Below are positions 9,636-13,920 of a DNA stretch of 49,091 nt, one piece after another (positions within the stretch are counted from its first letter, which is position 1; each line of letters begins with the position of its first letter). The position numbers and the translations under genes are program-made. The notes under the pieces were generated by a model. The model was not told the DNA's origin and did not search any database. It worked only from the letters and a program-made list of their open reading frames with translations. Source of the DNA: an uncultured euryarchaeote (GTDB lineage: Archaea; Thermoplasmatota; Poseidoniia; Poseidoniales; Poseidoniaceae); NCBI GenBank assembly GCA_937897365.1, contig CALCOP010000126.1, positions 1-49,091 of the forward strand, in the 5' to 3' direction.

Positions 9636-11441
9636 ATGGGCAGAAGGTGGTCGAGTATTCTTCTCGTTGTTCTTTTGCTCGGTTTGAGTTCTTCACCCTT
9701 GGTAGAAACACCATTAGAAGATATCGAAACGGTCGCTTTTTCCTCTTCGAATCTCGCACTTTCATTCTCCAACGGACCGGATGTAAATGAAGACATCACC
9801 GGTCTTCACAGCCTTACTTTCTCGATGACTGGATATGCAAATGTCTCATCTTTACTTCTTGAAATTTCAAGCGATGGAAATGCTTGGACCACTGTAAAAA
9901 ACATTACCTCTGCTCCTTGGTTGACGTATTTTGATTCCACGGCTTACAGTAACGGATCCTATACCCTCCGAGCGACAGCATGGGACGATGATGTGAATGA
10001 AGCTGTTGTTGCTTCTTCTGGAACCTTCAACATCGTAAATCAAGTTCCTGTCATTACCATTTTCACTGCGCTTAATGCAGCTGTCGGAACCGGCAATTCA
10101 GCAAGCGATCGAGCCTGGTTTGATATCGAGAGTGATGGTAGTTTGGCATACCGGTGGGGTGCGAGTGATGACGACATCAGTTATGCATCAATTTCCAATG
10201 TTCCTGGCCCGGGTGCTCCATCGAACGATGGTCCGAGTAGTCTGTCATACGGATGGGATTGGAGCAGCGGCTCGATGTCAGAAGGAACGTGGAACTCCCG
10301 AATAACAGTGTATGACGATTCAAGCCTCTCAGCATCTCAAACCCTGTTCATTGGTATCGACCGGACAGGGCCAACACTTTCAGGCGTTACAGTTGGCGAC
10401 GGTGCTGCTTGGCAGAAATCATCTCAAGTGACCTTGAGCGGTTTAATCAATAATGCTGATGATGGTCAAGGAAGCGGTGTTTCAGCCACCGAGTACTCAT
10501 TCGATGGAACTACTTGGACTTCAACGACCTCGGATTCCTTAACCCTGACTCTTGCTGAAGGCGTTCACACACTCTCGTTTCGCTCAATCGACCGTGTAGG
10601 AAATATCGGTGCCACAATACAAACCAATGTTCAGGTGGATGAAAGTATTCCAGAGGCCATTGGTTGGACGGTTGATGAACTGACAACAAGCCGTATTGAG
10701 CCTGCAAACGTCAGTTTTAGTGCTGTTGATGATGGCTCGGGTATCGATACTGCAAACTCGTATATTCAGTTTGGTTTTGATTCGAACGGCGTTGGTGAAT
10801 CTCCTGACCTCTCCTCAAATTGGATGCTGGCCAGCTCATCCGGTTTGTCGGGATCTGTTGGATTGGCAAGTTGGGCTACGAAATCTCGCCAATATTTGAT
10901 GTTTAGAGCAGTTGTTGTGGATAATGCTGGAAATGAATACATCTCGAGTCCGAGTTCCTATCAAATCCTACCAGGATTAGATTTGTATTGGAATGCAACC
11001 CAAACAAATCTTGACCGACTCATTGTGCGACCTGGAGAGACTTCGGGTATAGTTACAATTACCAGTCTACTTGAGTCAAATCAAAATTACGGCGGTAGCG
11101 TCGTTGTTCGATTAGAATCAGCCCCTGCTGACCGCACTTCGTCTGTGAGTTGGACTGTTATGGAATCAAGAACATTAGATTCTGGCACTTTATCTGATTC
11201 TCAGGAAGAGTTGATTTGGAATTATACTGTTCCACAAACCGGTCAATTTGATCTACGGCTGGTCATCGATAATGTGAATGTCATCGATGAATACGATGAA
11301 GGAAATAATTTCAATCACATGGTTGTAACCGGTGCGGGTATTGGCTCGCCTGGATTAGTCCCCTCATTCGCACCCTCTGTTGTCCTCATCCTCCTCACAG
11401 GGTTTGCTCTTGCCTTACTTCAACGCAGAACAAGAGATTGA
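9636..11441 (+). CDS. Secreted Ig-like/CARDB surface protein with a C-terminal membrane-anchor or sorting signal
   Basis: ATG 9636 gives MGRRWSSILLVVLLLGLSSSP (signal peptide). Ig-like module DRTGPTLSGVTV...YSFDGTTWTS...GVHTLSFRSIDRVGNIG. CARDB-like end IDEYDEGNNFN. C-terminus SPGLVPSFAPSVVLILLTGFALALLQRRTRD. Confidence 0.75.
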   Translation: MGRRWSSILLVVLLLGLSSSPLVETPLEDIETVAFSSSNLALSFSNGPDVNEDITGLHSLTFSMTGYANVSSLLLEISSDGNAWTTVKNITSAPWLTYFDSTAYSNGSYTLRATAWDDDVNEAVVASSGTFNIVNQVPVITIFTALNAAVGTGNSASDRAWFDIESDGSLAYRWGASDDDISYASISNVPGPGAPSNDGPSSLSYGWDWSSGSMSEGTWNSRITVYDDSSLSASQTLFIGIDRTGPTLSGVTVGDGAAWQKSSQVTLSGLINNADDGQGSGVSATEYSFDGTTWTSTTSDSLTLTLAEGVHTLSFRSIDRVGNIGATIQTNVQVDESIPEAIGWTVDELTTSRIEPANVSFSAVDDGSGIDTANSYIQFGFDSNGVGESPDLSSNWMLASSSGLSGSVGLASWATKSRQYLMFRAVVVDNAGNEYISSPSSYQILPGLDLYWNATQTNLDRLIVRPGETSGIVTITSLLESNQNYGGSVVVRLESAPADRTSSVSWTVMESRTLDSGTLSDSQEELIWNYTVPQTGQFDLRLVIDNVNVIDEYDEGNNFNHMVVTGAGIGSPGLVPSFAPSVVLILLTGFALALLQRRTRD

Positions 11442-11466
11442 AAAGAGACCGGCCATAGGATTAGCC

Positions 11467-12213
11467 ATGCGCCAACCGCTACCAAGGGTCCCTATGAACC
11501 GAATTGCGGTTCTCATTGGTGCAAAGGGAGCAACTGCGAAGTCGCTGAAATCTGCTTCAGGATGTAAGGAATTTAACATCGATTCTGACAGTGGTGATGT
11601 CGAAGTTGTTTGGGGTGAACCCGGAACTTATGACCCTGTCAAAGCGATGAAATTGCCTGATGTGATTAAAGCAATTGGGCGAGGCATGGCACCAAAATCA
11701 GCGATTCGATTACTCGATGATCATAATTTCTTCGAATTGGTTGACATCCGAAAGTTCGTTGGAAAAAGGTCGAATCAGCAGCGTCGTATTCGTGGACGAA
11801 TTATCGGGAGTGACGGGAAAATTCGTAAGTTGATTGAAGGTCTTACCGATACCCAAATTTCAATCTACAACTCAACAGTTGTTTTAGTCGGAGAAGAAGA
11901 AGGATTGGCTGCTGCACGACAGGCTGTTGAAATGATTGCAGGAGGTGCGGAGCATGGAACAGTTCTCAGTTTCCTTGAGCGTGACAGAAAGCGTTCTCGG
12001 CTATCAAATCGGCAACTTGAAACCATTGAAATACGAGACGATGTGGCTGCTCCCCAATCTGGTTTTGAAGAATTAGTGCCTGGGCTCTCTGACCTTTCAC
12101 AACGCCGTTCACGTCGAATGAAAGCATCCCAAGTTGACCCCGCAGATGATGAAGAAGTTGCTCTCATGATGGAACTGGCCGAAGATGAAGAAGTCAGTTG
12201 GGGAGAAGAATAA
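11467..12213 (+). CDS. KH-domain RNA-binding protein (archaeal Dim2/Pno1-like)
   Basis: RIAVLIGAKGATAKSLK and GRIIGSDGKIRKLIEGLTDTQISIY are two KH-type GxxG regions. Acidic C-terminus. The first ATG after the upstream gene ends is 11467. The ORF track start at 11380 overlaps that gene. Confidence 0.75.
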   Translation: MRQPLPRVPMNRIAVLIGAKGATAKSLKSASGCKEFNIDSDSGDVEVVWGEPGTYDPVKAMKLPDVIKAIGRGMAPKSAIRLLDDHNFFELVDIRKFVGKRSNQQRRIRGRIIGSDGKIRKLIEGLTDTQISIYNSTVVLVGEEEGLAAARQAVEMIAGGAEHGTVLSFLERDRKRSRLSNRQLETIEIRDDVAAPQSGFEELVPGLSDLSQRRSRRMKASQVDPADDEEVALMMELAEDEEVSWGEE

Positions 12214-13239
12214 TCATTCTTCTTCTGAAAAAGCAGCCGGTTTAACATGGTCCAAGTTCATGTTGAGAACCTCGTACATTGCTTCAGCAAGGTTTGTTTC
12301 AACGCCGTTTTTCGTAGCCCATTCAACCAAACGAGTCACATCTCGCACTAAGAATTCCTGTGCCTTTGGATGGGTTTGAATGACAGCTTGCCCAACATCA
12401 ATTACAACAGGGCCGTCGTTATGCCAAAGGATGTTGAACGGTGAAAAATCACCATGTACAAGATTTGCCTTTTGCCAGCAAACGGCTAAGAATTCAAGTA
12501 ATTCATCAAAAACCACCTCTGGATTTTCTACAGAAACTTCCCGAAGTTTCGGAGATGCTGATACTTCGGTTCCAAGATATTCCATAACCAAGACATTCTT
12601 GTGGATACCAAGGGGTTGAGGAACATTCAAACCCCAACGCGCTAATCTCGATAAATTGCGATGTTCTTTTCGAACCCAGATATCGACCAAGTCTCGATGC
12701 CGTCGGCGTAAGCCTCCAAATCTACGATCGCCTTCGATGTATTGAATGAGATTTTTGAAAACAGCATTCGATGTATGAAATATCTTAACTGCAACAGTTT
12801 TGCCATCGAGGTCGGTCGCGTGAAAAACATGCGCTTCTTTACCCCGAGCAATTGGGAAATCGAGAGTGTCGATGGTTCCACCTTTCATCAATTTATACAA
12901 CGACATCAATGTCATTCGGTCAAAGACTTGGTCAAAGACACGACGGTCAACCCAATCATATGTTCCAGAACCCATTGCACCTTGGATTTTTGACTCAATA
13001 TCTCGGAACATTCGCTTGTAACGCTCCTCCTTCATCCAATTAAAAGCTCCAGATTTTGCTTCGAGGTTACTTAGAAAATGATCCTCTTCAGTCCTGGCAA
13101 ATTGATCGTCTTTACCTTGTTCAGAGAGTTTATTTTTGGAACCTTTCCGATGCTGACGGTGGCGCTTACGCTGCCGTTTATTGGAACCGAGTTCATCATT
13201 CCAGTCTCTCTTCTTCGCCATACGCCCACCTAGGGTCAT
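12214..13239 (-). CDS. rio1: RIO-type serine protein kinase (Rio1-like) with a basic N-terminal extension
   Basis: RIO fold motifs GKEAHVFHA, AVKIFHTSN, VLVMEYLG, LVHGDFSPFNILW and VIDVGQAV. N-terminus is KRQRKRHRQHRKGSKNK. Sits 12 nt downstream of aIF1A. Confidence 0.85.
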   Translation of the reverse strand: MTLGGRMAKKRDWNDELGSNKRQRKRHRQHRKGSKNKLSEQGKDDQFARTEEDHFLSNLEAKSGAFNWMKEERYKRMFRDIESKIQGAMGSGTYDWVDRRVFDQVFDRMTLMSLYKLMKGGTIDTLDFPIARGKEAHVFHATDLDGKTVAVKIFHTSNAVFKNLIQYIEGDRRFGGLRRRHRDLVDIWVRKEHRNLSRLARWGLNVPQPLGIHKNVLVMEYLGTEVSASPKLREVSVENPEVVFDELLEFLAVCWQKANLVHGDFSPFNILWHNDGPVVIDVGQAVIQTHPKAQEFLVRDVTRLVEWATKNGVETNLAEAMYEVLNMNLDHVKPAAFSEEE

Positions 13240-13251
13240 GCATCAACCGAA

Positions 13252-13920
13252 TCAGCCGAAGAGAGATTCGAGGTCTTCATCATCATCGTCACTGTCATCA
13301 CCTTCACCTTCATCCGGATATTCTTCAACAGGAATATGAGGTGTTTCTTCTTCAACCTCTGTTTCAACCTCTTCTTCAATCTCATCATCAGAGGCAAAAA
13401 GGTCATCATCGTCATCATCATCATCAGAACCGAATACATCGTCGACATCATCATCGGATTCTTCGGTTGATTCACCTTCAATCTCAGGAGCATCAACCTC
13501 ACCAAATGTATCCGAAAATTCGTCATCGTCATCATCGGTTGCTGTATTCATGCCAAAGAAATCGAGCTCTTTGGGCAAAACACCCTTGCGTGAGAGATAC
13601 ATCGCTTGAGTTTTGGAGTAACGATGCTTAACGTCGGCTTTGGAATCTTGAAAATCCCAAGGCCAGACAATGATCAAATCACCGTCACGAACCCATTGAC
13701 GTCGACGCATTTTCCCAGGAATGCGAGCCATACGGGTCTCGCCATCTTCACAAAGAACAGTAACCCGTCGGCCACCAAGAATTTGTTCAGCAAAGGCGAA
13801 CATTTCGTTGATTTTGCGGTTTGGCATTTTCACTCTGATCTTGCCACTGGAAGAATCTTCAGGATTCTCAAGACGAGCAAGCTCTTCTATGTCCACTTTT
13901 TCTTCATAACGTCGACCCAT
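13252..13920 (-). CDS. eif1a: Translation initiation factor aIF1A with a ~100-aa polyacidic C-terminal tail
   Basis: S1/OB core VKMPNRKINEMFAFAEQILGGRRVTVLCEDGETRMARIPGKMRRRQWVRDGDLIIVWPWDFQDSKADVKHRY. GGTGAGG lies 5 nt upstream of the ATG. Tail runs from aa ~124 to 222. Confidence 0.85.
   Translation of the reverse strand: MGRRYEEKVDIEELARLENPEDSSSGKIRVKMPNRKINEMFAFAEQILGGRRVTVLCEDGETRMARIPGKMRRRQWVRDGDLIIVWPWDFQDSKADVKHRYSKTQAMYLSRKGVLPKELDFFGMNTATDDDDDEFSDTFGEVDAPEIEGESTEESDDDVDDVFGSDDDDDDDDLFASDDEIEEEVETEVEEETPHIPVEEYPDEGEGDDSDDDDEDLESLFG

Follow-up and report, generated by a model that had tools for sequence, protein, structure and literature searches.

In Poseidoniales (Marine Group II, MGII), the archaeal translation initiation factor aIF1A carries about 100 additional acidic residues behind its conserved core, and this tail ends in a short motif that matches the C-terminus of the ribosomal stalk in register. 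The tail was found in an uncultured euryarchaeote of the family Poseidoniaceae, on contig CALCOP010000126.1 (assembly GCA_937897365.1, read along the forward strand), of which the whole stretch of 49,091 nucleotides is called the window here. The tail is real and disordered, is limited to one clade, has a single origin and bears a tip under selection. We tentatively favour the explanation that it serves as a flexible tether, whose tip would dock in the stalk-type groove of a translation factor, most likely aIF5B. In the published view, archaeal aIF1A has no C-terminal tail and the link between the eIF1A tail and eIF5B is a eukaryotic invention (PMC9226500, PMC5009744). Our full-text literature search found no description of an aIF1A tail in Poseidoniales or Marine Group II, and on stalk mimics it found only work on toxins and GCN2. 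A globally abundant archaeal order with an independently evolved tail provides a natural experiment on a disordered acidic tether in the A site, and raises the question of whether docking motifs of the stalk type can find a second use away from the ribosome.

Features of the tailed aIF1A

Coordinates are window positions, and the aIF1A gene lies on the minus strand. The following features were assigned to the gene and its product:

13252..13920, minus strand: complete aIF1A gene, 222 aa plus a TGA stop at 13252-13254 (open reading frame list, Pfam, NCBIfam)
13585..13833, minus strand: OB-fold core and C-terminal helix, residues 30-112 (AlphaFold2, Pfam, NCBIfam; aIF1A matches 1jt8 and 5jb3 in the PDB)
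13555..13578, minus strand: LPKELDFF, residues 115-122, counterpart of the ancestral C-terminus (alignment with tail-less relatives)
13255..13554, minus strand: disordered acidic tail, residues 123-222, specific to Poseidoniales (homologue comparison, AlphaFold2)
13501..13521, minus strand: EFSDTFG, residues 134-140, the first F-x-x-x-F-G unit, aligned by HMMER with the F-rich portion of the tail in yeast eIF1A
13429..13455, minus strand: DDDVDDVFG, residues 156-164, an internal polyD plus hydrophobic-F-G unit
13393..13425, minus strand: DDDDDDDDLFA, residues 166-176, an internal polyD plus LF[GA] unit whose coding DNA is a run of GAT/GAC triplets
13315..13341, minus strand: PHIPVEEYP, residues 194-202, a second conserved island that reads [FH][IV]PVEEYP across the genus, with a rise in model confidence nearby
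13255..13299, minus strand: conserved tip DDSDDDDEDLESLFG, residues 208-222 (low entropy, synonymous codon variation, alignment with aP1)

The core identifies the protein as a member of the aIF1A/eIF-1A family, with an S1-like OB fold scoring above curated cut-offs. Pfam PF01176 (eIF-1a) matched residues 38-100 with 67.6 bits (cut-off 30.2), and the core reached 114.8 bits against the NCBIfam equivalog TIGR00523 (cut-off 102.9). This membership is also supported by its status as the sole orthologue, with a single match in this genome and one in each Poseidoniales genome sampled, and by the conserved archaeal gene context, with Rio1 directly downstream. In the AlphaFold2 model, which was built from a 41-sequence alignment, the five strands of the OB fold and a helix at residues 103-112 had a predicted local distance difference test (pLDDT) score of 85-95. 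All six aIF1A profiles stop at residues 114-119. In the nearest relatives without a tail, the protein ends at the residue aligned with F122, exactly where the first-pass annotation had placed the end of the core.

The same annotation had described the tail as mostly Asp and Glu at 13255-13551, which corresponds to residues 124-222, and both statements were confirmed: residues 123-222 contain 52 D/E and no K/R. The motifs that it quoted were all found, namely DTFG (137-140), DVFG (161-164), DLFA (173-176) and the C-terminal DLESLFG (216-222). The tail is predicted to be coil with a pLDDT of about 50-60, apart from a rise to 65 at residues 191-200, and a helical turn at 217-219 is its only secondary structure in the model. 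When searched alone against Pfam (at E <= 10) and NCBIfam, it matched no family. Each of the five Phe residues in the tail has G, A or S as its next residue, a pattern reached by only 3 of 20000 composition-preserving shuffles, and the motif pattern thus exceeds chance.

The tail is also unusual within the genome (G000; 86% complete). The last 60 aa of aIF1A are the most acidic among 1651 open reading frames (ORFs) of at least 120 aa, and no ORF of at least 80 aa other than aIF1A contains two or more acidic-acidic-(x)-hydrophobic-F-[GAS] motifs.

As a separate observation, a surface protein of 369 aa encoded elsewhere in this genome (G000:C57:7238-8344, minus strand), with a signal peptide and one C-terminal transmembrane helix, has a cytoplasmic tail with DDEFDDFF and DEFDDLFDDL. 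These acidic hydrophobic-F motifs resemble the internal units of the aIF1A tail.

Canonical archaeal aIF1A (TIGR00523/PF01176; M. jannaschii 1JT8, P. abyssi 5JB3 and 7ZAG) shares the OB core, the C-terminal helix, the single copy and the pairing with Rio1. However, untagged archaeal chains of solved structure have 102-115 aa (one tagged P. abyssi chain has 134 aa), whereas Poseidoniales aIF1A has 100 further acidic residues with conserved motifs. We class the protein as a genuine aIF1A whose tail resembles that of eukaryotes by convergence and has a stalk-like tip.

A single origin within Poseidoniales

The tail and its terminal hydrophobic-F-G are kept among close homologues, as 117 of the 120 best end in D[LI]E[AS]LFG; the source names given for close homologues are those of Candidatus Poseidoniaceae. 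The sampling of the order comprised 60 Poseidoniales genomes, of which 58 had an aIF1A match, each with a long open frame, and 49 were translated. The tail was present in all families sampled, covering both MGIIa and MGIIb, and a C-terminal tip of the form acidic-[ILV]-[DE]-x-[LF]-F-[GAED] was found in 47 of the 49 translated genomes. The tail is thus neither absent nor unconserved in close relatives.

The core ends in LP-x-x-[VL]-D-x-F-G across the 49 genomes, and the architecture behind it varies among lineages. In MGIIa, 2-6 tandem polyD-[LMVI]-F-[GAS] units follow the core, with copy numbers that differ among close species, and the tip is [LIV]-[DE]-x-L-F-[GA]. The [FH][IV]PVEEYP island is a feature of the genus of the window. 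At the end of the tail stand a polyD run and the tip. Tips in MGIIb are mostly DDIDSFFG or DIDSLFGPA, with VDDLFE, LDDLFE and DEDLFD in a few genera.

In the archaeal relatives sampled outside the order, the protein ends with the core. An exhaustive HMMER search with the core alone covered 1.84 billion representatives, and homologues below about 70% identity all stop at the core end. The closest tail-less sequences end in ...[IL]P-x-x-[ILV]-D-[IV]-[FY], aligned with LPKELDFF of the window protein. In the sister order of the same class, no tail was found and aIF1A ends in IPESIDVF or IPEILDIY followed by a stop codon. Likewise, no tail was found in the approximately 120 Thermoplasmatota genomes outside the class that had a match in a phylum-level sample of 151 genomes; nearly all of these matches end at query residues 117-129, and the few that extend to 137-149 read through stop codons. 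In a maximum-likelihood tree of the cores, all MGII sequences form one clade (97/97), which lies inside a group (99/98) with Marine Group III (MGIII) and other archaeal sequences ending in xDIF, and the eukaryote-type sequences are placed elsewhere. Common descent with the eukaryotic tail was thus not recovered, since the MGII cores nest among tail-less archaea. On the basis of the tail-less relatives and the core tree, these sequence comparisons indicate a single origin of the tail, at the base of Poseidoniales and independent of the eukaryotic one, by extension beyond an ancestral C-terminus of the form ...xD[IV]F.

Among the public gene calls for MGII aIF1A, several (representatives P0122-P0126 and P0129) join a correct core to a tail that is out of frame and rich in Arg, Thr and Met. 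These are probably assembly frameshifts in GAT/GAC runs, and automatic annotation of the tail is therefore error-prone.

Selection on the tip and its resemblance to the stalk

Column entropy was calculated after the tails of the 49 Poseidoniales had been anchored at the last aromatic residue. It was about 2.6-3.4 bits at positions -25 to -12 and 0.25-1.9 bits over the last ten positions, with the consensus D-D-D-D-[DE]-D-[ILV]-[DE]-[SAD]-[LF]-F-[GA]. The conserved positions use five Leu codons, both Phe codons and four Gly codons; this free synonymous change at conserved residues places the constraint on the peptide and not on the DNA. Across the 49 tails, 164 of 218 F/W residues are followed by G, A or S, compared with 45 +/- 6 in shuffles, although the sequences are related and these figures are descriptive and do not give a probability. 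The tip is under purifying selection, and the short linear motifs of the tail are maintained.

The first-pass annotation had compared the tail with the stalk, and the genome's own stalk proteins bear this out at the tip. Here aP1 ends in GLGSLFG (...EEEEEEEEAGGFDGLGSLFG) and aP0 in GLGDLFG (...EEEEESFGGLGDLFG), so that aIF1A shares L-x-S-L-F-G with aP1 in C-terminal register. Among 4732 crude ORFs of at least 60 aa, only three end in LFG, namely aIF1A, aP1 and aP0, each after an acidic run. A fourth ORF, ending in ...GVFG, was rejected as a stalk-like candidate: no acidic run precedes this end, and its sequence reads as a formate-tetrahydrofolate ligase, a family in which such an end is presumably usual.

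The function of the stalk peptide has been studied in P. horikoshii aP1 (peptide EALAGLSALFG), in which L103, L106 and F107 are essential for GTPase binding, and G102 is also required for binding of aEF-2, which is abolished by G102S (PMC5887453). The C-terminal peptide of aP1 binds aEF1A, aEF2, aIF5B and ABCE1 (PMC6791870), and the aIF5B-aP1 crystal entry 5yt0 was among the PDB matches. L217, L220, F221 and G222 of the window aIF1A align with L103, L106, F107 and G108 of aP1 in exact register from the C-terminus. The aIF1A end, DDDDEDLESLFG, therefore contains the acidic stretch and the C-terminal Leu-x-x-Leu-Phe-(Gly) of a stalk peptide, as does the organism's own EEEAGGFDGLGSLFG, and the aIF1A tip is likewise predicted to be helical. 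The two differ in location and constancy, since the aIF1A tip sits on a small-subunit factor and differs between genera, whereas the stalk tip is on the 50S subunit and is invariant. Judged from sequence, the likeness is one of a short linear motif and not of homology.

The idea of a stalk mimic was thus partly supported. In sequence, it stood for the tip, which matches the essential residues of aP1, but not for the internal DxFG units, which lack the first Leu and hold only part of the stalk motif, nor for the counterpart of G102, which is Asp.

A proposed tether to aIF5B and the points against it

Because aIF1A is located in the A site of the 30S subunit, its tail can be pictured as follows. 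About 100 residues of expanded polyanion would sweep the intersubunit face, and the tip (an acidic run followed by Phi-x-x-Phi-F-G, in which Phi is hydrophobic) would fold into a short helix on binding, thereby docking in the hydrophobic groove in which translation factors receive the tip of the aP1/aP0 stalk. The most likely partner would be aIF5B, as it must join aIF1A on the 30S subunit before the 50S subunit and its stalk arrive; ABCE1 would be the second candidate. The internal polyD-Phi-F-[GA] units may provide weaker auxiliary contacts that raise the capture rate. At subunit joining, competition for the groove from the seven true stalk tips could contribute to the release of aIF1A. The tail would then be a functional analogue of the eukaryotic eIF1A C-terminal tail that evolved independently, and shielding by the polyanion in free aIF1A may coexist with tethering. 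The C-terminal helix of aIF1A contacts domain IV of aIF5B on the 30S subunit (PMC9226500), so the tail would be well placed for either site on aIF5B.

A more far-reaching version of this proposal, which we regard as possible but put forward with reserve, is that Poseidoniales evolved, on their own, a portable stalk carried by the small subunit. With one complete stalk-type docking motif and several partial ones, the tail would pre-load aIF5B, and perhaps ABCE1 or aEF1A, onto the 30S initiation complex, and would hand the factor off to the 50S stalk by competition for the groove. If this were true, the portable stalk would represent a second, convergent origin of the coupling between eIF1A tail and eIF5B that had been regarded as specific to eukaryotes.

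Several observations weigh against docking in a stalk-type groove. D216 occupies the position of aP1 G102, and 46 of 49 relatives have D or E there. Searched by itself, the tail matches no profile of a stalk family, including Ribosomal_60s (PF00428), which in this genome matches only aP1. Throughout the order the stalk ends do not vary (F[EGD]GLG[SD]LFG), whereas the aIF1A tips do (LFG, LFA, FFG, LFGPA, LFE, LFD), and no covariation was seen in 20 MGIIb and f2 genomes. In two of the 49 genomes, G005 (...DDDGEA) and G004 (...GLWSSD), the canonical tip was not found in any frame. Finally, the aIF5B of the window's subclade has strongly diverged, while the aIF1A tip is nearly unchanged.

This divergence is considerable. 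The aIF5B of the present genome (L002 1048..3069, minus strand, = G000:C3) has 43% identity to that of G003, a genome of the same genus, and the G003 protein has 72-80% identity to other genera and 56-57% to MGIIb. The divergent form is the sole aIF5B in the subclade with aIF1A of the G000 type (84% identity in G026, 88% in G048 and 73% in G056). Domain IV is its most diverged part (29% identity), and its C-terminus SYGFGWKP replaces H[FY]WGR. It looks as if the evolution of this essential factor had been strongly accelerated.

Within aIF5B, an insertion of about 40-50 residues with a zinc knuckle-like Cys-x2-Cys...His...Cys pattern was also observed at residues ~385-420, between domains II and III. 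It occurs in the Poseidoniaceae genera g1 and g2, and not in g4, MGIIb, MGIII or the aIF5B sequences in the PDB.

Possible docking like the eukaryotic eIF1A tail

The strongest alternative retains the partner and changes the site. The tip would act like the DIDDI end of eukaryotic eIF1A and bind the helical subdomain of aIF5B domain IV, as the end of the eIF1A tail binds eIF5B domain IV (PMC9226500, PMC5009744). By sequence, the tip resembles the eukaryotic D-I-D-D-I end and the stalk end about equally well. The majority of tips have D-I-D-[SAD]-L or V-D-D-L before F-x, which is the eukaryotic D-[IL]-D-D-[IL] of P0245 and P0258 with two more residues. The window protein ends in D-L-E-S-L-F-G and its relatives in D-I-D-[SA]-L-F-[GA] or V-D-D-L-F-E, with 1-4 extra residues after the pattern, and eukaryote-type representatives end in ELDIDDL and EVDLDDL. 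HMMER aligned 40 tail residues, including F-rich units, with the yeast eIF1A tail (3wbk_C). The two tails share an acidic, disordered character and a position after the C-terminal helix (52% D/E and a pLDDT of about 50-60 in the window protein), F-x-x-x-F-G units, and a hydrophobic-x-x-hydrophobic end in acidic context. The position of the aIF1A C-terminus beside domain IV and the presence of the D4 helical subdomain in archaea (PMC5009744) would also suit this mode.

Other evidence points away from it. In A. pernix aIF5B, an extra C-terminal helix fills the surface that, in the eukaryotic factor, is used for binding the eIF1A tail (PMC5009744). Loss of this C-terminal segment in the tailed lineages was considered and rejected: MGII has H[FY]WGR and tail-less MGIII has [P]FW[GA]R at equal length, so that no room has visibly been made. 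In the divergent subclade, domain IV changed most while the tip did not. The retained aIF5B C-terminus and the diverged domain IV with an unchanged tip lean weakly, and not decisively, against the domain IV mode. Moreover, the Phe-Gly added at the MGII tip, with the Phe invariant, is without a eukaryotic counterpart. The MGII tail also differs from the eukaryotic one in its independent origin, and it is about three times as long as the human tail. To our knowledge archaea do no scanning, so a role of the MGII tail as a scanning enhancer is unlikely. We consider the eIF1A-type mode unlikely, although the stalk-groove and domain IV modes are both live and both point to aIF5B.

Less likely readings: shielding, binding to Rio1 and neutral expansion

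An intramolecular role is improbable as the main function of the tail, although it is compatible with the tether to a stalk-type groove that we favour. Here, the polyanion would shield the basic rRNA-binding face of the OB domain in free aIF1A, thereby raising specificity or solubility, and the tip would be secondary. The net charges (+5 to +9 for the MGII core, about -52 for the tail) would allow this, and the free variation in tail length and internal repeat number is expected of bulk charge. In eukaryotes, the tail of eIF1A touches the OB domain of the same protein, and affinity for the 40S subunit rises when the tail is deleted (PMC5009744). Shielding leaves the stronger conservation of the last 6-7 residues unexplained, however, and, as far as is known, tail-less aIF1A functions in all other archaea. 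A more basic core compensating for the tail was rejected, since the cores of the nearest tail-less relatives carry +8 to +13; as the MGII core is not more basic, there is no sign of co-evolution between core and tail.

A similar layout occurs in bacterial SSB and T7 gp2.5: behind the OB fold come an acidic, disordered linker and a C-terminal tip that is hydrophobic or aromatic. Their tails shield the binding face and recruit partners. They act in replication and not in translation and belong to a different family, and the analogy has been drawn for eIF1A (PMC5009744).

A third possibility, which we consider quite improbable, is that the tail has the downstream Rio1 as its partner and binds to its basic N-terminal extension, which would link aIF1A to late 30S maturation. 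The gene concerned is:

12214..13239, minus strand: Rio1-type kinase, 12 nt downstream of aIF1A (ORF and profile match)

Rio1 is probably co-transcribed with aIF1A. Relative to MGIII, Poseidoniales Rio1 has an N-terminal extension of 70-100 aa, which contains a very basic cluster of the KRQRKRHRQHRK type in MGIIa and genus g7. In human cells, EIF1AD and RIOK1 occur together on pre-40S particles, and EIF1AD was among the PDB matches of the window protein (6zxf_j). The co-occurrence is only partial, however, as the MGIIb genera g10 and g11 have tail and tip and no basic Rio1 cluster. A charge-charge contact would need no hydrophobic C-terminal tip, and the aIF1A-Rio1 gene order, common to MGII and MGIII, is older than the tail.

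Neutral low-complexity expansion by slippage in GAT/GAC runs, with no specific function, would fit the triplet and 12-15-nt tandem repeats in the tail DNA, the unit copy numbers that vary between close species and the many database gene calls frameshifted here (P0122-P0129), but it is already disfavoured and very improbable, given that the tail is kept in every family of an old order, that the tip is conserved while synonymous codons change freely, that the Phe context is non-random, and that no other ORF in the genome is alike.

The tail was also considered as a substitute for a lost initiation factor, and this was rejected because aIF1, aIF2-beta and aIF5B are all present.

Other observations

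Two SUI1/aIF1 matches of similar score were found in this genome (G000:C167:5-211 and G000:C158:2422-2634), one of them at a contig end; they may reflect either a genuine duplication or one gene split by the assembly. Next to Rio1 and convergent with it, with abutting stop codons, lies a gene for a Dim2/Pno1-like KH protein (11380..12213, plus strand), a protein that ends in an acidic segment with aromatic residues (...EDEEVSWGEE).

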